From: an uncultured virus (IMG/VR IMGVR_UViG_3300042691_044383)
Taxonomy: Duplodnaviria > Heunggongvirae > Uroviricota > Caudoviricetes
IMG/VR virus record: IMGVR_UViG_3300042691_044383
Span: 62,001-116,632 of that record
Strand: one strand, 5' to 3'
DNA length: 54,632 nucleotides
Below are positions 3,808-19,288 of this stretch, piece after piece. The notes under the pieces were generated by a model, which did no database searches, was not told the origin of the DNA, and worked only from the letters and a program-made list of their open reading frames with translations. The first letter of the stretch is position 1. Every line of letters starts with the position of its first letter. A program made the position numbers and the translations under genes.

Positions 3808-3871
3808 AACCAAACCCTTTCAAAACAAACCAACAAACATCCAGTTATTAAGAACGCCTTAATAACTCAGC

Positions 3872-3954
3872 GGACCGGCCATGATTCGAACATGTTAGAC
3901 CGCTCTTTGAGCACCATCGCGGATTACTTTTCAGTGGTCCCGCGCCGCCGATCC
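3872..3954 (-). ncRNA. tRNA-like element C (atypical cloverleaf)
   Basis: Acceptor stem GGATCGG/CCGGTCC and T arm CATG-TTCGAAT-CATG. The D region is extended and carries a GAAA hairpin. No canonical 7-nt anticodon loop and no CCA. Confidence 0.55.
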
Positions 3955-4035
3955 AATTTACCAGCCTCACAAGCGGTTGCTTATCTGGTGTCATTTCGCA
4001 CCTTTTACTATCTTTCTTTCGTACCGCTCCGAAAA

Positions 4036-4129
4036 GGATCGGGCAGGAATTAGCACCTGCTGTCGCCTGCACTCAATTGGATACTTGCAGGAGTGTTGGT
4101 GAGCGTGTCACTGTCCACGCCGCCGATCC
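4036..4129 (-). ncRNA. tRNA-like element B
   Basis: GGATCGG/CCGATCC acceptor, D arm GCGT-GGACAGTGAC-ACGC, T arm GCAGG-TGCTAATT-CCTGC. A 42-nt insert replaces the anticodon and variable arms. Confidence 0.6.
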
Positions 4130-4291
4130 TCGCCGTCTCTCCGGCTGTGTCTTTGCTCGGCACGACCCGATTACCCGCTCCCTGCTCCTTTCGAATTATC
4201 TCCGGAAGCAGATCCTTGCGGCACAAAATTAACCATTTCACTGGACTCTGCATGCCCGTAGGCTACCAGTAGCAGGTTTCGCATATGCAAA

Positions 4292-4415
4292 GGATCGGGC
4301 AGGAATTACACCTGCTTTTCATACTTGGCGGTATTCGATCTGTTCCGAATCCGTTGCGTCTATGCGTTTAGGCGTTGCACAGCTTTCCGCGTGTCGTTGT
4401 CCACGCCGCCGATCC
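4292..4415 (-). ncRNA. tRNA-like element A
   Basis: GGATCGG/CCGATCC acceptor, D arm GCGT-GGACAACGAC-ACGC, T arm GCAGG-TGTAATT-CCTGC. The ~73-nt insert is unrelated to that of element B. Confidence 0.6.
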
Positions 4416-4417
4416 TC

Positions 4418-4648
4418 GCAACTCAGGCTGTTGCCGCCTTATCGGTTTTGCCTCCGAGTTCGGCTCGTCTTGTAATCATCATCGCTTCATGACTGTTCTC
4501 CTCATGTTTTGCTATCCGAATCGCTTGCCTGTGGTGGCCTAACGGGCGTCAGGGCTATTCTTTGAGACCTAGACCTGACCGTCTGTCGGAACTTGTTCGC
4601 GTACCCGGTCGGCTTATTTGTTAGTGCAACTTAGGCTGTTGCCGCCTT
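4418..4648. repeat. 23-nt direct repeat (4418-4440 and 4626-4648)
   Basis: gcaact(c/t)aggctgttgccgcctt, 22/23 identical. The core recurs at 9889-9901. Confidence 0.85.
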
Positions 4649-4707
4649 GCGTTAGCTAGCCACCGAAATGGCTAGCTGATTGCTGTCGAAATTGGCATTA
4701 CCTGCGA

Positions 4708-6171: not shown

Positions 6172-6234
6172 ATCAACTCCTGTGAAAGGGTCTAACAAAC
6201 AAGGTAACAGCTGCTACGTAGCAGTTGTCAGCAG

Positions 6235-6308
6235 TGTGACCGCCCGGACTTGAACCGGGAACCGAGAGATTATGAGTCTCCTGCTCTAACCTATTGAGCT
6301 ACGGTCAC
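6235..6308 (-). tRNA. tRNA with CAT anticodon, most likely tRNA-Ile2 (lysidine type)
   Basis: Canonical cloverleaf: GTGACCG/CGGTCAC, GCTC/GAGC, GGAGA-CTCATAA-TCTCT, CCCGG-TTCAAGT-CCGGG, discriminator A, CCA not encoded. The anticodon arm resembles bacterial Ile2 and lacks the initiator GGG/CCC stem. Confidence 0.92.
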
Positions 6309-6566: not shown

Positions 6567-7079
6567 TTACCTTTCGACATATTGAAAAGTCGGGACTAAA
6601 TCCGATTCATCGAAGTGATGAACGACAACCATGCGGTGCTGTTCCTTCGGAAGTGAAACCTTCAGCGAAAGACCGGCTTGAATTTTCCTTTTTGGCGTTT
6701 CATTCACGATTTCTTGTTTCAACTTGAAGGACTGCTGGCAGAATACTAAGTACTCTTCCAAACTTGGTAGCAATCCTCCGTACTTTGCTGTGAGCGATTT
6801 TCGATTACCGGCGACCCTTTGCACCGTTAGGTGCGTCCAGTCGTCGGGTGGAAGCTCGTCCACAAAGATCACAAACCCGTGCGGTTTAGCCGCCCGGTTC
6901 CACACCGTAGGCTCGAAAAGCCAGGATCCGTAGAACAGCAAACGGGCGGTAAAATTACCTTTGTCGGTTTGCGTGAACGGGACGTTAGCCAATTTAACTT
7001 CGTGGTTCTTGTTGACGGAAAAATCCCGCCAAAGGCACGTGCCAGGCTTCAACCCGGCCATCAAATCTTCCGTTCTCAC
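6567..7079 (-). CDS. Hypothetical protein
   Basis: 170-aa ORF with a GTGA start/stop overlap with the pentapeptide gene. Confidence 0.7.
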   Translation of the reverse strand: MRTEDLMAGLKPGTCLWRDFSVNKNHEVKLANVPFTQTDKGNFTARLLFYGSWLFEPTVWNRAAKPHGFVIFVDELPPDDWTHLTVQRVAGNRKSLTAKYGGLLPSLEEYLVFCQQSFKLKQEIVNETPKRKIQAGLSLKVSLPKEQHRMVVVHHFDESDLVPTFQYVER

Positions 7080-7735
7080 GTGTCACCGCCTTTCGCTTTT
7101 GCCATCACACCCCGTATCACGCCTTTAATCATTTCGCCGTGCGACTTCCACCAAGCAGACGCATCTTCGTGCATCTGCTTGATCTCTTCGCTTTCAGGCG
7201 TCCACGCTAACCAGTCCTCGTTAATGCGCTGCTGGCAGCCGATAGCTGTTCGGTCCGCGTAAACGCAGACCGACCAACCTCCAAAATCCATCCTACAAAT
7301 TGCGGCGTTGATGCAAGCGCCGATCACGACGGTGCGGCTCAGGTTTGCACCTTTCAGGTTTGCACGGTACAGATTGGCGCCTTCCAGGTTTGCACGGTAC
7401 AGATTGGCGCCTTCCAGGTTGGCATGCCGCAGGTCGGCACCTCGAAGGTTGGCCTCGCTTAGGTTGGCATGCCGCAAGTCGGCACCTTCCAGGTTAGCCT
7501 CGAACAGTTTAGCGTCTAACAGGTTGGCACCTCGCAGGTTGGCCTCGCCAAGGTTGGCATAGACCAGGTTGGCCCGTACAAGCTCAGCCAGGCGAAAGTC
7601 GCAATGTCGCATATAAACACCGCAAAGGTTGGCACTAACCAGGTTGGCACTGTAAAAGTTGGCTTTCTTTCCGCCCTCGCCACGCAACCACTTCGCGTGC
7701 TCAGTTAAAATCGTTGCTAGTTCTTCAGGTTTCAT
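7076..7735 (-). CDS. Pentapeptide repeat protein
   Basis: A(N/D)LxG repeats (ANLEG, ADLRH, ANLYR), N-cap ILTEHAKWL, C-terminal IGCQ...W domain. Confidence 0.95.
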   Translation of the reverse strand: MKPEELATILTEHAKWLRGEGGKKANFYSANLVSANLCGVYMRHCDFRLAELVRANLVYANLGEANLRGANLLDAKLFEANLEGADLRHANLSEANLRGADLRHANLEGANLYRANLEGANLYRANLKGANLSRTVVIGACINAAICRMDFGGWSVCVYADRTAIGCQQRINEDWLAWTPESEEIKQMHEDASAWWKSHGEMIKGVIRGVMAKAKGGDT

Positions 7736-8526
7736 GTGTTATTGCCTTTCGAATTTTTTATCACGTGGCGGATTGCTGCTTTGATAAACTCGCCGTGCGT
7801 TGCCCACCAAGAAGCCGCATCGGAGTGCATCTTCTTGATCTCTTCGCTTTCCGATGTCCAAGCCAACCAGTTTTCATTAGGTTGTGTTTTGCAACCGATG
7901 GATGTTCGGTCCGCGTAAACGCAGATCGACCAACGATCGATATCCATGCGACAAACCAGGGTGTCGATTCTTGCCCCAGTAAGATTAGCATCGTCAAGGT
8001 CAGCGCCGTTAAGGTTGGCCCCGCGAAGGTCGGCCCCTTCAAGATTGGCCCGGCGAAGGTTGGCCCCGCGAAGGTTGACCCCGCGAAGGTCGGCCCCGTC
8101 AAGGTTGGCTCCGATAAGGTTGGCCTTGTAAAGGTTGGCCCCGCGAAGGTTGGCCCCGGCAAGGTTGGCTCCGATAAGGTTGGCCTTGTAAAGGTTGGCC
8201 CCTTCCAGGTCGGCCCCGATAAGGCTGGCTCCTAAAAGGAAGGCCCTGCGAAGGTTGGCCCCGCGAAGGTTGGCCCCGGCAAGGTTGGCATCGCGAAGGT
8301 CGGCCCCGGCAAGTTTGACCATGGCAAGTTCGGCCCCACCAAGGTTGGCCCCGCGAAGGTTGGCATCGCGAAGGTCGGCCCCGGCAAGTTTGACCATGGC
8401 AAGTTCGGCCCCACCAAGGTTGGCCCCGCGAAGTTCGGCCCTGTGCAGGTTGGCCCTTTTGCCACCTTCATCCTTTAACCACTTCGCGTGCTCAGTTAAA
8501 ATCGTTGCTAGTTCTTCAGGTTTCAT
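7732..8526 (-). CDS. Pentapeptide repeat protein (paralogue)
   Basis: Same N- and C-terminal domains as the neighbouring gene, with more ANLRG/ADLRG repeats. Confidence 0.95.
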   Translation of the reverse strand: MKPEELATILTEHAKWLKDEGGKRANLHRAELRGANLGGAELAMVKLAGADLRDANLRGANLGGAELAMVKLAGADLRDANLAGANLRGANLRRAFLLGASLIGADLEGANLYKANLIGANLAGANLRGANLYKANLIGANLDGADLRGVNLRGANLRRANLEGADLRGANLNGADLDDANLTGARIDTLVCRMDIDRWSICVYADRTSIGCKTQPNENWLAWTSESEEIKKMHSDAASWWATHGEFIKAAIRHVIKNSKGNNT

Positions 8527-8538
8527 GTGTCCCCAGCC

Positions 8539-8919
8539 TTATTTATTTGCGTCCATGAAGACAATGGTAAACAGCACATTCCACGTTGTTCGAGCTGTAA
8601 AAGCTCGAACAACCTCCGTCTCTTCTTCGGTCAGATCCGCCATCCTCTTGTTAAGGATGACAAGCTCGTCGTCCGTCAACTCGCGAATTTTTTTCGCGAG
8701 AACCTTGTCCATTGAACGTCTGAAAACCGGGCCCGGTTCTCCGCGTTGGATGACGAACGCCATCCAAAAGGAATTCTGAAACTCCCGTGTAACTTGTGCT
8801 TCCACCTTCTCCCGATTTTTGGCGGGAAGCTTGCCTTCCTCCCCTTGCATGACCGAAAGGGAAAACAACATCGAAAAAGTGAAAACGATCAAAGCAATTG
8901 TGCGCATTTTTAAATCCAA
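8539..8919 (-). CDS. Hypothetical exported/membrane protein
   Basis: Hydrophobic N-terminus MRTIALIVFTFSMLFSLSV. The start may be ATG 8907. Confidence 0.6.
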   Translation of the reverse strand: MDLKMRTIALIVFTFSMLFSLSVMQGEEGKLPAKNREKVEAQVTREFQNSFWMAFVIQRGEPGPVFRRSMDKVLAKKIRELTDDELVILNKRMADLTEEETEVVRAFTARTTWNVLFTIVFMDANK

Positions 8920-9128: not shown

Positions 9129-9605
9129 CTAGTCGCGTACGGTGTAGTTGTAATGAATTTTCCCGTCATCGTTGAGACGGACAATTCGCATCGCCCCGTA
9201 CCATTTGCGAGCCAGGACATCCCGGACACAAGCCGCCATCGGCGCCCAGTAGCCGTGATCGCCCATTTTTGAAAGCAACTTGGAAAGGCTTTCTTCCGTC
9301 TGCCTCGAGAACACATGCAGTACCGCTTGGCGGTACTCTTCCGAAGCGAGCAGCTCGTCACGCAGCTCCTTTGGCACGCTAGCGTGCCATGCCTCCATTA
9401 CACGATGTAACGGAGATTGCGAGTCCCTTGGCTCATCCAAACCGCGCATTACTAGCACGTCGAAATGGTTATGAGCAAACCAATCGGAGTAGTCGGACGG
9501 CAACGGCCATGCGGATCTTGCAAACGCCACAGCTTGCTCAAACTTGGTTTTCCGCTTGACGGGAGTCGCTGCCGGGGTTTGCTTTTTGAACAAAAAAGAA
9601 AACAT
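9129..9605 (-). CDS. Hypothetical protein
   Basis: Start moved to ATG 9605 (MFSFLFKK), preceded by AAGGA. The longer call runs into a terminator. Confidence 0.7.
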   Translation of the reverse strand: MFSFLFKKQTPAATPVKRKTKFEQAVAFARSAWPLPSDYSDWFAHNHFDVLVMRGLDEPRDSQSPLHRVMEAWHASVPKELRDELLASEEYRQAVLHVFSRQTEESLSKLLSKMGDHGYWAPMAACVRDVLARKWYGAMRIVRLNDDGKIHYNYTVRD

Positions 9606-9631
9606 AATTTTATCCTTGTGAATGCAAAAGT

Positions 9632-9671
9632 AAAAAGCCCCACCGCCGCATCCACTGAATGCGGTAGAGCT
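9632..9671 (-). terminator. Rho-independent terminator closing the candidate large ncRNA
   Basis: AGCTCTACCGC...GCGGTGGGGCT followed by TTTTACTTTT. The G-U pairs form only on the minus strand. Confidence 0.75.
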
Positions 9672-10485
9672 TGCGTGGTAAAACACGCGGAATGAATCAT
9701 CGGTTGGTTATCTAGCACCGCCACGTAGAGGCTGATTCATGGTGCCGTATACCGCTTACTCAGTAAAGACTCTCACCAGTCTTTATGCTTGCGGTAATCG
9801 AATCCTGTAACTAGGACCCCTAAAAGAGTGAGCTCTGCATTTTTACCTGTATGCCCAGGCTAGCTTAGGTTGTTAGCCTAAGGGTACGAGCTGTTGCCGC
9901 TTGCTAAGCGATCCAGAACTTCCCCGGATTATTAATGGCTCCTTCGCGGTAGCTTTGCGTATCGTTTTACGTTGGACAAAACGCCAGACTCGCACTGGGT
10001 GCTTTAATCGTTTTTGATCAAAACATCTGCTAGCCTTTTTTTAGTGGAGCTAGTAACCACGTTACCTATGTTTTAACGAGAAGGTATGTTCTCGGAACGT
10101 TCACTGCTTTTTGGCTTCGCCTTGCGTAAAAAGATACAACAAGACGCCAACGAAGAAGCCCACAGAAATTTAGGACTTTTCATCAGAACAGTTTTTCACT
10201 AACTGGGGGATGTCTTTTCAGACTTTTAGTTCAACCCCGAAACCGTGCCACGTGTACTTTTACACGCCACACAGTAATGCTTCACAAGACCCATATAGAG
10301 AAGATCTCGGTGAGGACGACACAAGTGCTAGCCGCCCGCAAATATCGCAAAGACAAAAGACGCTGTTACCCTCGGCTTGATTTTTACATCAAGTGAGTGC
10401 GGTCTTTGCGATACTCGACTTCAGCCAGTGAAAGTACGTTTGCCTTTGTACTTCGACCGACCTGCAAACGATAAGTCGTCTGCAT
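9632..10485 (-). ncRNA. Candidate large structured non-coding RNA (~850 nt)
   Basis: No ORF of 60 aa or more between 9725 and 10519 in an otherwise dense genome. More than ten helices, two H-type pseudoknots, minus-strand G-U pairs and a 3' terminator. Confidence 0.65.
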
Positions 10486-10519
10486 ATTATTCTGACACGT
10501 TTTTACCCTAAATTAAGGT

Positions 10520-10816
10520 CTAAAAAGTGTACTCTACGACCTTACCGTTTTGAGCAACACGAAGGCGAAGCTTCTCCGCGCTAAGCATCTCTTTCAGCCG
10601 TTTCTTCTTCTCAACACCCATGTTGACAATAGACTGCTTTATGGTTTGCATCGCCTGCACGCGTTTGGACGCCGCCCGATTGCAGGGCTTGCAGCTTTTC
10701 TTTGCTGTGGGCACGGCACCGCTCGCAAGGAACGGAAATTCCCGTACAAAATTCGGGTTTGTCGCAAGTGTAAGGAGAACTGTGTCCTCGAGTACCAGCA
10801 GTTTGTGTGTTGCCAT
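10520..10816 (-). CDS. Small basic protein with a CxxC motif
   Basis: ATG 10816 lies right after the upstream stop. Contains KSCKPCNR. Confidence 0.7.
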   Translation of the reverse strand: MATHKLLVLEDTVLLTLATNPNFVREFPFLASGAVPTAKKSCKPCNRAASKRVQAMQTIKQSIVNMGVEKKKRLKEMLSAEKLRLRVAQNGKVVEYTF

Positions 10817-10817
10817 G

Positions 10818-11255
10818 TTAGATAGAACTTGATGTGGAGGTTTCAGGTGCATCGGGTATCCAGACGACTTGCGTTGGCTGCAGTGTGTCCAATCGGTTCA
10901 TCGCCGCGACCAACACCCCGACTTCGTGCTGTATCTCATCCCAAATGGCCGTCGCTTGAGCCGTCGAGGCGACGTCGAGCTCCACGTAGCTCAAGCGATA
11001 GTAGGGCCAGCTTTGATCCGGATCCGGTGCACCTGCAGGTATGTCTGCAAGTTGCGGTGGTCCTGCAACCGCTTCAAATATATCCGTGCTAAGATCCGTG
11101 TGCGGGCTAGGCGGGTTTCGACGATAAATGAACACGTTACCGTCTATGTCGTTTCCCTCGAAGTCCGTCACGTCGACACGCAAGCGGTAAGCACCGTAGT
11201 TAGGGAATACGACAGTTCCGGTTTCTGACTTTGTAAGCTGGATCCGTCTAGCCAT
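10818..11255 (-). CDS. Hypothetical (possibly virion) protein
   Basis: 145-aa ORF in the operon, with a Ser-rich C-terminus. Confidence 0.75.
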   Translation of the reverse strand: MARRIQLTKSETGTVVFPNYGAYRLRVDVTDFEGNDIDGNVFIYRRNPPSPHTDLSTDIFEAVAGPPQLADIPAGAPDPDQSWPYYRLSYVELDVASTAQATAIWDEIQHEVGVLVAAMNRLDTLQPTQVVWIPDAPETSTSSSI

Positions 11256-17448: not shown

Positions 17449-18483
17449 TTATAGTGATACGGAGTTGAATGAAAAATCGCAGACAGCCAAATCCGCTAAG
17501 TTGATGTCTATGACTAATTTTTTGTTTACAACGTCCGTTATTATAGAAACACCCGACTCCCCGAAGAACGTCAAAGTCGGTCCCTGCAAACCGTTAATCG
17601 AACGCAAGGCTTCATTGCAATAAAAGTCACCTGCAAGCAAGCCGTTATCGGACCCAACGGGTGGAGTTTCTCCAGGGAAGATTGCGATCTCCTCGCAAGG
17701 CTGACCGTCTCCCGCACCGAGCGTAGGCGCAAAAACCAGTGTAGAGCTGGCAACGTCTTGGCTTATAGACATGTTGAAACCGGCTTTAAACTTGATATTG
17801 CCGGTCAAGCACGTTTCGTACACGTAAGTCTGACCGACGTCAAAGTCCCACTGGTTCTGCGGGCAAGTCTCCGGGCGAAGAGCTCGCGTCCTGTCTGAAT
17901 TCGCGATGTTAACGGACACGACTTGGTTTAGGTACAAGTTCTGTATCAGGCACGGTTCAATGATTGCCGAGTAGACGTCTTCGCGGGTAAGGCTTGTGCC
18001 TGCTGGTATTCGGGCAGCTAGGCTTTGCATGTCGCCCGAGACCATGAATCCGGACCAAAGGGGCTCTCCGCATTCTTCCGCGACACCGGAGTCGGAAGTC
18101 GACACAGGTAATTGGCCGGACATTGAAAGGCTTATTGCCGCCTCGTCAAGCGTGAAGCTTTCGACAAACTCCGTCTCGAATAGTTCCGCGGTGGTCGAAC
18201 GGGTAAAGATAAGTGGTGCATGCATCAAATTGCTAGCAGTGCAGCGGAATTCAAACTCGAATACCGATGCGTTTACTCGCGTGATGCGATACAAGAAGAC
18301 TTCGTCGATCTCGGCGTCAAAGCCGGACTCGGGGCCCATGATAACGCCAAAATCAACTATCACGTTGTCCGGCAAAGCGTAAAAATCGAAAAGCCCGGAG
18401 TCAGGCGTATTAACGCCCGAGCTTCCTTCTTTGAAAGGATAGACGCGGTTCAGGTTGTCGTTGAAAAAGTTAGGACGTGGCAT
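17449..18483 (-). CDS. Cys-rich structural protein, paralogue 5
   Basis: N-terminal FFNDNLNRVYPF and C-terminal LRSINGL. Confidence 0.75.
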   Translation of the reverse strand: MPRPNFFNDNLNRVYPFKEGSSGVNTPDSGLFDFYALPDNVIVDFGVIMGPESGFDAEIDEVFLYRITRVNASVFEFEFRCTASNLMHAPLIFTRSTTAELFETEFVESFTLDEAAISLSMSGQLPVSTSDSGVAEECGEPLWSGFMVSGDMQSLAARIPAGTSLTREDVYSAIIEPCLIQNLYLNQVVSVNIANSDRTRALRPETCPQNQWDFDVGQTYVYETCLTGNIKFKAGFNMSISQDVASSTLVFAPTLGAGDGQPCEEIAIFPGETPPVGSDNGLLAGDFYCNEALRSINGLQGPTLTFFGESGVSIITDVVNKKLVIDINLADLAVCDFSFNSVSL

Positions 18484-18484
18484 T

Positions 18485-19288
18485 TTATTTGTTGATCACC
18501 GAGCCTTCTACGGAAAAGACTATGCCTGCGGCAGTAGTGCGGATTCTTAACGCAGGATCCGGGGCCAAATCATCGTTCATCTGAATGTTGAAGTTGCCTT
18601 GTTCGTCCGGGTAGCAATCGTAGGTGTAATCGCCGTTAACGACACGTATGACACGTATCGGGTTAACTGGAACGAACAAGTCTGCCGGGTTGCACAACCT
18701 CTGCAAGTTCAAAGGATCACCTACGACGTCGACGCGAACCACCGGAACGTCTTCACCTTGTTTGTTGATGTAGCTATCCGTGCGGAGAACCACACCGTCT
18801 TCACCCACAAGCCAAACTTTGCCCGTTGAAAGCTGCCCGTCAGGCGTTTGCATGCCCGTGACGCCCGGGTAAGCCGCTGGAACCTGACACGTAACACAAA
18901 ACTCCGTTTGACCCTGCTCAAAGACGTGCGTTCGAATCCCCCAGGCGGAGATCAAAGCCAGTCTGTCGGGAGTTGAGACTAGCAAACCCGCCGGTCTCCC
19001 GTGCTCGTCCGTGAGGCGGATAGAACCCGTTGAAATGGGGAGATTAACCTCACCCTTCAAACGCAACGGAAAAGCTGTGTCGCCAACGTACAGCACGAAC
19101 TTATCCGACTGCACGATAACTTGCGAAACGTAATAACGCCCCGACCCCTCGACGGCGTAAATGTGGGCGTCCAAGAAGGTATCTTCGACGAAAAACACAC
19201 TCCCGTTGCTCAAACTCGCGGTCGGTACAAACGGGTACTTGGTTTCTCTCAGCGAACGAATTAGTTCTGCGTGCCGAATGTCTGTCAC
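18485..19288 (-). CDS. Structural protein, paralogue 4
   Basis: N-terminal LRETKYPF and C-terminal VVNG...PDEQGNFNI. Confidence 0.75.
   Translation of the reverse strand: MTDIRHAELIRSLRETKYPFVPTASLSNGSVFFVEDTFLDAHIYAVEGSGRYYVSQVIVQSDKFVLYVGDTAFPLRLKGEVNLPISTGSIRLTDEHGRPAGLLVSTPDRLALISAWGIRTHVFEQGQTEFCVTCQVPAAYPGVTGMQTPDGQLSTGKVWLVGEDGVVLRTDSYINKQGEDVPVVRVDVVGDPLNLQRLCNPADLFVPVNPIRVIRVVNGDYTYDCYPDEQGNFNIQMNDDLAPDPALRIRTTAAGIVFSVEGSVINK

Follow-up and report, generated by a model that had tools for sequence, protein, structure and literature searches.

A gene-free gap in an uncultured jumbo myophage as the probable gene of a large structured RNA of an uncatalogued family

Background

The DNA analysed in this work (hereinafter, the window) comprises 54,632 nucleotides (nt) of an uncultured virus of the class Caudoviricetes, namely positions 62,001 to 116,632 of the IMG/VR record IMGVR_UViG_3300042691_044383. 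The window contains a gap (9612-10519) between a gene of 110 amino acids (aa), whose stop lies at 10520, and a gene of 160 aa, whose start lies at 9611. The best overall explanation of this gap, which we consider moderately probable, is that it is the gene of a large structured RNA of an uncatalogued family, read on the minus strand, starting near 10485 and ending near 9632. The weaker statement, namely that the gap holds a genuine gene for a structured RNA of a new family, seems quite likely. A large structured non-coding RNA of the minus strand had been proposed in an earlier sequence-only reading of the window. The proposal is upheld by conservation exceeding that of the flanking genes, by compensatory changes, by the asymmetry of the two strands and by a same-strand match to the twister ribozyme in a related phage.

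Conservation in related phages

The RNA is present in three distinct sequences only: the window, the contig L004 and the 175-kb contig L005. The window copy is identical to that of a 205-kb IMG/VR contig (L016), and the L004 copy is approximately 95% identical to it. A contig of the Joint Genome Institute (JGI), L012, is identical to L005 over the 3,022 nt fetched. Exact words of 21-22 nt and of 19 nt retrieved the same three contigs from IMG/VR and nothing more; a 22-mer retrieved one contig, identical to L005, from the JGI metagenome contigs. The proteins encoded upstream and downstream led to the same contigs again in IMG/VR, and blastn against GenBank phages gave no match to the RNA region. 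The search for homologues, suggested together with the initial proposal, thus provided the relatives L004 and L005 but nothing beyond three distinct sequences.

The four genes upstream of the RNA are 69-76% identical between the window and L005, whereas the 5' half of the RNA (10056-10485, about 430 nt) is 88.5% identical. The identity reaches 0.93-0.95 in 10275-10474, and the mean column identity of the first 255 nt is 97%. The 3' half (about 420 nt) has an identity of 0.58 to L005; whole hairpins were gained or lost there between conserved islands. Identity declines gradually, with scattered changes, and no block of identity was observed.

Compensatory changes and strand

We obtained a consensus structure of the three sequences with RNAalifold. 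It included about 240 pairs; after removal of five end pairs, 238 pairs in 31 helices were left, and 96.2% of the 711 cells of this model pair. Changes on both sides were found in 25 of the 238 pairs, compared with 10.9 ± 2.7 in column shuffles (none of 500 shuffles reached 25), and slid partners gave only 1-4 double changes. Because the consensus structure was fitted to the sequences under test, we repeated the test with a fold of the window sequence alone (pair span up to 120). In this independent test double changes in L005 keep the pairing in 13 cases of 18 and break it in 5. Slid controls keep it in 27 of 76 cases (Fisher p = 0.007), and four flanking coding windows subjected to the same treatment in 32 of 85 (p = 0.009). 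In the consensus structure, compensatory pairs of the 5' half include a change from G-C to A-U in the second hairpin and a change from U-A to C-G under a conserved GAAA loop. In the 3' domain compensatory pairs occur in helices 23, 24, 27 and 28.

The minimum free energy (MFE) of the minus strand is -299.9 kcal/mol (z -5.8, or -6.4 in separate shuffles) and that of the plus strand is -248.6 kcal/mol (z -3.35), so that the minus strand folds better by 51 kcal/mol. A similar asymmetry is seen in L005, where the values are -284 (z -8.1) for the minus strand and -255.6 (z -4.3) for the plus strand, a difference of 28 kcal/mol. After one-sided changes, 21 of 54 pairs remain intact if the minus strand is considered, compared with 10 of 51 for the plus strand (p = 0.035). 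In addition, one pair of the 10282-10313 stem runs C-G/U-G/U-A across the three sequences. The energy gap in two genomes, the one-sided changes and this series together support the minus strand as the likely RNA strand. The assignment to the minus strand had originally been made from G-U pairs, and both the energy asymmetry in the window and L005 and the difference in one-sided changes agree with it.

Eight of nine coding windows of equal length, folded as a control, have z between +0.6 and -2.3. The ninth will be considered in the Discussion.

A candidate twister ribozyme in a relative

In the L005 lineage the RNA appears to end in a twister ribozyme of type P1 (RF03160), which takes the place of the window segment 9666-9750; this is a candidate, as its 55.8 bits fall below the curated cut-off of 67.2. 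A short hairpin and a mismatch in the outermost pair account for the deficit. The match (L005:5032-5091, which corresponds to G002:C1:116757-116816(-)) lies on the strand of the RNA and covers the full model (1-68); its E-value is 8.4e-11, 3.3e-12 or 5.3e-13 depending on the size of the search. All elements of the core are matched: the UAA context of the cleavage site, GGUUCCAAGCCCUGG, AAA and GAGG. The ribozyme directly follows the 3' domain (the match to the covariance model R2, described below, is at 116818-117020), and the next gene starts at 116696, 60 nt further on. The order in L005 is therefore RNA, twister, hairpin, ribosome-binding site (RBS) and a gene of 126 aa.

The twister was found in one of the 50 related phage records searched, i.e., in the L005 lineage. 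The L004 locus has no match at E ≤ 5, and the window has none at E ≤ 10 in 9600-9800 or 9400-10700; in this respect the window copy differs from its relative with the full-length core. A predicted catalytic module on the same strand is independent evidence that the locus functions as RNA, at least in the L005 lineage. Bacterial twisters are often located near phage genes, according to PMC6765202. A twister as the tail of a structured RNA of about 0.7 kb has, to our knowledge, not been described before.

Non-coding status of the gap

The longest open reading frame (ORF) of the gap on either strand is 56 aa long, which confirms the initial impression of a long gap without a credible gene. The gap is one of only two stretches of at least 300 nt in the window that lack a minus-strand ORF of at least 75 aa. 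Nine small ORFs were followed through the relatives; in L004 or L005 each of them is broken by a stop, shifted in frame or altered mainly by non-synonymous changes. In particular, a 33-aa ORF at the 5' end of the RNA is interrupted by a stop in L005. We therefore rejected a coding region, given the maximal ORF length and the broken state of the small ORFs. A gene remnant was rejected as well, as tblastx revealed no translated similarity to the genes at the same position in five distant relatives.

An intron does not fit the locus either: the flanking ORFs are complete and adjacent in relatives, no exon is interrupted, and no Rfam match was obtained. The template RNA of a diversity-generating retroelement was rejected because the record has no second copy of the region and no reverse transcriptase was detected among 76 Pfam-scanned proteins (the record is about 52% complete). 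The RNA is single-copy in the 116-kb record. Neither iterons nor arrays of direct repeats were found at the locus.

Comparison with known RNA families

Over the whole window Rfam 15 reported only tRNA at the gathering score. With lax filters and E ≤ 10, the region 9400-10700 gave a single chance match of 13 bits (sroH). There was no Rfam match there to GOLLD, ROOL, OLE, group I or II introns, RNase P or tmRNA, and ARAGORN found no tmRNA. This agrees with the sequence-only reading, in which no intron, RNase P or tmRNA core had been recognised. The cmscan comparison with GOLLD and ROOL that it had recommended was negative even at E ≤ 10, and the models of these two RNAs have no match at E ≤ 5 in the loci of the two relatives.

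The alternative that the RNA is a divergent GOLLD-like one was not borne out, since GOLLD gave no match and the polarity of conservation is reversed. The RNA resembles GOLLD in its length of about 800 nt, its encoding by phages, its occurrence in lake metagenomes, where GOLLD was first detected, and the combination of one conserved and one variable half. According to 10.1101/2024.12.08.627333, it is the 3' region that is universally conserved in GOLLD, in contrast to the 5' half here (0.885 vs 0.58 for the two halves). GOLLD is often found beside tRNA islands, and GOLLD env-38 sits downstream of a Met-tRNA (10.1101/2024.12.08.627333). In our case ARAGORN reports a tRNA-Met at 6234-6308, 3.3 kb downstream of the RNA; it is the sole tRNA of the 116-kb record, which leaves little of the suggested proximity to tRNA genes.

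ROOL, too, is large and orphan, and is found in phages and prophages; it has no known protein partner and is proposed to assemble from RNA only (10.1101/2024.12.08.627333). The 5' and 3' parts of ROOL are described there as intertwined and co-evolving. Here, by contrast, the halves differ in rate, no pseudoknot is supported, and the model does not match. The same source reports that GOLLD and ROOL build RNA-only cages larger than the ribosome. A catalogue based on IMG/VR 3.0 lists 8,495 candidate structured RNAs with 29-151 nt per motif (PMC10690425). The RNA is not described in the literature that we covered on GOLLD and ROOL, large phage RNAs, non-coding RNAs of jumbo phages and phage twisters, a scope that did not extend to the supplements of PMC10690425. 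The RNA can be placed among the large orphan structured RNAs of phages but is unrelated in sequence to the known members. The other option offered initially, a new large RNA class, still stands, but it is based on three distinct sequences only.

Organization of the RNA

All of the helices listed in the initial proposal are present in the sequence and in the folds. On the minus strand the RNA begins with a 9-bp hairpin at 10463-10484 (-11.3 kcal/mol, z -4.4). Just upstream of it lies a TAATAT box (10486-10491, in the part 10486..10492), a possible -10 element that is conserved in all three sequences. A terminator-like site at 10565-10579, inside the upstream gene, is within chance (2 such sites were found in the scan and 2.4 expected). 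As no convincing terminator separates the TAATAT box from the upstream gene, read-through from the upstream genes is equally possible.

The conserved 5' half (10056..10485) is a row of about 15 helices. It includes an invariant block of 60 nt (10314..10373, columns 120-179 of the alignment A2), in which stems and loops are the same in all three sequences; the block contains a 7-bp hairpin with a 10-nt loop (UAGCACUUGU). A perfect 12-bp stem (10343-10354/10402-10413) encloses nested stems. Further on are the G-U-rich stem at 10282-10313, a hairpin with an outer extension at 10251-10266 and a hairpin at 10077-10094. No terminator-like site or U-run was found between the 5' and 3' halves.

The variable hairpin modules follow (9960..10055), where three hairpins (helices 19-21) have compensatory changes in L005. 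The hairpin 9963-9983 lacks a counterpart in L005, and one metagenome contig (run X13) joins 9960 directly to 10056, the intervening stretch being deleted or replaced. In the core of the 3' domain (9753..9962), with hairpins at 9864-9882 and 9764-9785 among others, conserved junction islands alternate with covarying hairpins. Of the 14 pairs of a closing helix (9717-9732/9938-9953), 4 are broken in L005, which thus retains this helix only in part. The variable last segment (9666..9750) includes the 8-bp pair 9692-9699/9733-9740 and a hairpin at 9673-9688; the alignment A2 shows only loose residual similarity in this segment. The RNA closes with a terminator-like hairpin of 12 bp followed by UUUUU (9637-9679, in the part 9632..9679; -19.7 kcal/mol, z -3.2). 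The core of its stem is kept in all three sequences, and the U-runs are weaker in the relatives. The RBS of the next gene begins about 20 nt past this hairpin.

Candidate pseudoknots and long-range helices were numerous, and with three sequences none could be separated from chance. An 11-bp pairing (A2 columns 58-68/722-732) fits all three sequences and competes with two supported hairpins.

On the 1.9-kb stretch compared, one small metatranscriptome run contains a single 212-nt contig, at 10264-10475, and nothing on the flanking genes. The contig lies within the 5' domain and is a weak hint that the RNA is transcribed.

Distribution and neighbouring genes

The upstream 110-aa gene (10520..10852, minus strand) marks the boundary of a conserved gene block and has homologues in all five distant relatives tested. 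The 146-aa and 110-aa upstream genes are conserved in these five relatives, where the gap that follows them measures only some 110-270 nt. As the relatives keep the upstream genes yet have such a short gap, the RNA, together with the 126-aa membrane-type protein gene described below, is a lineage-specific insertion in one narrow clade of freshwater myophages with genomes of about 200 kb.

To describe the distribution we used two covariance models: R1, built from the first 255 nt, and R2, built from 210 nt of the 3' domain (9753-9962). They were applied to related records, 80 in total, which were reached through 79 of 80 tail-sheath loci and L004; L016 was left out as identical to the window. 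R1 had matches in two records of a first set of 50 and in none of a further 30, and had no match in the 25 rated at least 90% complete. R2 matched the same two of the 50 records as R1. There were no R1 matches in five sheath-bearing metagenome-assembled genomes (MAGs) or in 151 genomes sampled from the phylum of one MAG. Neither of the jumbo phages RaK2 and 121Q was matched by R1 or R2 in a test that was one-directional.

The only gene seen travelling with the RNA (8539..8919, minus strand) encodes a protein of 122-126 aa with hydrophobic ends; it was found in 2 of the 50 related records, the two that have the RNA. Its place is directly after the RNA in L005, after the 160-aa gene in the window and after genes of 107 and 114 aa in L004. 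The co-occurrence is only suggestive, as all carriers are close kin. The 126-aa protein has 51-52% aa identity between the lineages, compared with 93-97% nt identity in the conserved part of the 5' half of the RNA. It belongs to no Pfam or PHROG family, and its look-alikes in ESM Atlas are sub-threshold (0.76-0.80) and have no family. Only 8 clusters of a collection of 5.8 billion proteins contain it, 50-100% identical to the window protein.

In L004 (L004:5155-5958) the two genes of 107 and 114 aa are inserted between duplicate 78-nt pieces that hold the terminator hairpin. The slot behind the RNA is occupied in the window by another gene (160 aa, 9129-9611) in the same ribosome-binding context. 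The hairpin region looks like a landing site for extra genes. As the downstream gene differs in each lineage and the upstream genes exist without the RNA, the RNA is a unit of its own, whichever gene follows it.

Discussion

Several observations weigh against a single large structured RNA. The three distinct sequences, two of which are about 95% alike, are too few for the covariation statistic of R-scape. The count of 25 double changes inherits the fitting of the consensus structure to the same sequences. In the window-only test one-sided changes keep pairs in 19 cases and break them in 28, versus 125 and 289 in coding windows (p = 0.18); changes in L004 keep 12 and break 13; and the long-range helices predicted from the single sequence do not hold in L005. 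From the failed long-range helices and the one-sided breakage it follows that the data support local helices kept by compensation along the whole length, rather than one defined architecture. One coding control (18000-18853, minus strand) reaches z -6.1 against dinucleotide shuffles and is as strong as the gap, so the folding energy is suggestive and not decisive. The TAATAT element and the closing intrinsic terminator of the sequence-only reading are both present in the sequence, but a simple promoter scan did not call the former and a simple terminator scan did not call the latter; the TAATAATAT motif does not recur elsewhere in the window. The 212-nt contig has low depth, and the RNA library may contain DNA. 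The 3' half is less conserved (0.58) than the genes and could be a separate, faster-evolving element, and the high similarity of the 5' half could partly be due to exchange between phages rather than selection. As the 5' part of about 430 nt and the 3' part of about 420 nt evolve very differently, the single transcript of about 850 nt is a putative one.

The main rival of a free RNA is a giant cis-acting leader, which we regard as unlikely. The RNA, the hairpin and the twister of the relative would control or process the mRNA of the next gene by attenuation or leader removal, that gene having originally been the 126-aa one. This would account for the order in L005, with 60 nt from the twister to the start codon, for the fact that the 2 of 50 records with the RNA are also the ones with the 126-aa gene and for the RBS context GCAUUCACAAGGA..AAAU.AUG about 20 nt past the hairpin, common to the 160-aa gene of the window and the 126-aa homologue of L005. 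It is also consistent with the proposal that self-cleaving ribozymes of bacteria may process polycistronic transcripts (PMC6765202). Nevertheless, each of the three lineages has its own gene behind the hairpin, conservation of the 5' half of the RNA far exceeds that of the 126-aa protein, and joint occurrence in a single narrow clade does not count as independent evidence. In addition, we know of no precedent for an 800-nt leader with about 28 helices. The sharp contrast of conservation raises another explanation, namely two or more elements: a conserved 5' RNA of about 250-430 nt and an unrelated fast-evolving array of 3' hairpins or a second RNA. The 5' half indeed consists of local hairpins in a row, it is not connected with the 3' half by any supported long-range helix, and the metatranscriptome contig covers the 5' part only. 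We nonetheless find this division quite doubtful: nothing like a terminator or a U-run lies between the halves, they occur together in all three genomes and nowhere else, and GOLLD has a comparable split into conserved and variable parts within one RNA (10.1101/2024.12.08.627333).

A feature of the DNA itself or a neutral one (a replication or packaging site, a recombination hot spot or a spacer), with similarity resulting from recent exchange and incidental hairpins, is improbable. The locus borders a region of gene insertion with a duplicated 78-nt piece, one coding window folds far below its shuffles too, and there are only three sequences. However, such elements of a DNA duplex would not be expected to show strong strand asymmetry, and they would leave the embedded same-strand ribozyme match of the relative unexplained; moreover, the locus has no iterons or direct-repeat arrays, compensatory changes exceed those of coding controls, and identity falls off gradually. 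Least of all do we expect a diverged member of a known family, be it GOLLD, ROOL, a group I or II intron, RNase P RNA or tmRNA. Length (about 0.8 kb), phage encoding, lake origin and the tRNA-Met 3.3 kb away, reminiscent of GOLLD env-38, speak for such a member. The Rfam and ARAGORN results given above for 9400-10700, with the sroH chance match as the only hit, the intact flanking ORFs of the relatives and the polarity of conservation opposite to that of GOLLD make it very improbable.

Returning to the RNA of an uncatalogued family, we propose the following scheme of its functioning. The TAATAT box would serve as its own promoter, or transcription would run through into it from the genes upstream. 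The RNA would then be released as a free stable RNA, by the terminator in the window and by predicted self-cleavage of the ribozyme before the hairpin in the relative, and might act in trans. The near-frozen state of the 5' core, loops included, indicates dense tertiary or intermolecular contacts. The near-invariant 5' part of about 250-430 nt may be the working part, which would contact a very conserved partner, either another copy of itself, as in GOLLD and ROOL, or a host machine; the 3' half may be an exchangeable, tolerant scaffold. Such a mechanism of a trans-acting scaffold or binder is offered tentatively. A bolder version, which we consider rather unlikely, is that the RNA is the first representative of a new class of giant phage RNAs matured by processing at the RNA level. 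In this class the twister would trim the terminator in one lineage, and the 5' domain would work without protein, by self-assembly or by clamping the ribosome or RNA polymerase late in the infection of a Planctomycetota-type host.

Each new large phage RNA that is unrelated to the others helps to separate general features (size, phage origin, a rigid and a plastic half) from incidental ones. The present RNA provides several handles: the predicted ribozyme at the 3' end in the relative, which predicts an exact processing site; the clean gain of the RNA and of one small membrane-type protein gene between genes that are adjacent in related phages; and a 250-nt core almost frozen in sequence. With three distinct sequences, all from uncultured freshwater phages, its distribution is very narrow, which restricts statistics as well as experiments.

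Source phage and other loci

The source record has a length of 116.6 kb and is about 52% complete according to CheckV; the window is its second half. Almost all long ORFs of the record are on the minus strand. Pfam and PHROG comparisons of the window proteins revealed a baseplate J-like protein, a tail fibre with collagen repeats, a tail sheath, a sigma-factor-like protein and several glycosyltransferases. In its other half, the record carries genes for a family A DNA polymerase, SbcCD-like proteins, a terminase and a dCTP deaminase.

The tail sheath (942 aa) has 352 homologues at E ≤ 1e-10 among 8000 candidates scored. As many of these sit on contigs of 170-236 kb, the source can be assigned to a clade of uncultured jumbo myophages with genomes of roughly 200 kb. 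None of the GenBank phages is close; the best sheath match there is 30% identical over 45% of the query. Relatives with a sheath identity of 70-80% are present in further collections. Parts of the window stretch are contained in 20 of the 24 sequencing runs listed, which belong to 17 studies, mostly freshwater or lake metagenomes. Among four runs examined, one (X17) is L004-like.

Five related sheath genes (L098-L102) are on contigs binned as Gemmataceae, Planctomycetota, Planctomycetaceae, Nannocystaceae and an unclassified bacterium. This binning weakly suggests Planctomycetota as hosts of the clade.

Between the RNA and the tRNA-Met (7076-8526) are tandem genes of pentapeptide-repeat proteins (219 and 264 aa), and a third such gene (199 aa) is in the other half of the record (G000:C1:40369-40968). 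The DNA around the pentapeptide-repeat genes is repeat-rich between relatives.

Apart from the gap with the RNA, only 3814-4707 (minus strand) is a stretch of at least 300 nt in the window that has no minus-strand ORF of at least 75 aa. It folds with -317 kcal/mol (z -4.25), has no Rfam match and contains dispersed repeats (31 nt, 23 nt and 20 nt, each in two copies, and 15 nt in three copies). Its counterparts are pieces spread across about 2.1 kb in the L004 contig and only two short motifs in the L005 contig. The tRNA-Met lies between the two gaps, and an 11-mer is common to 3814-4707 and the large RNA (a weak similarity, E 0.19). This stretch may be a second locus of a structured RNA or of a repeat element.

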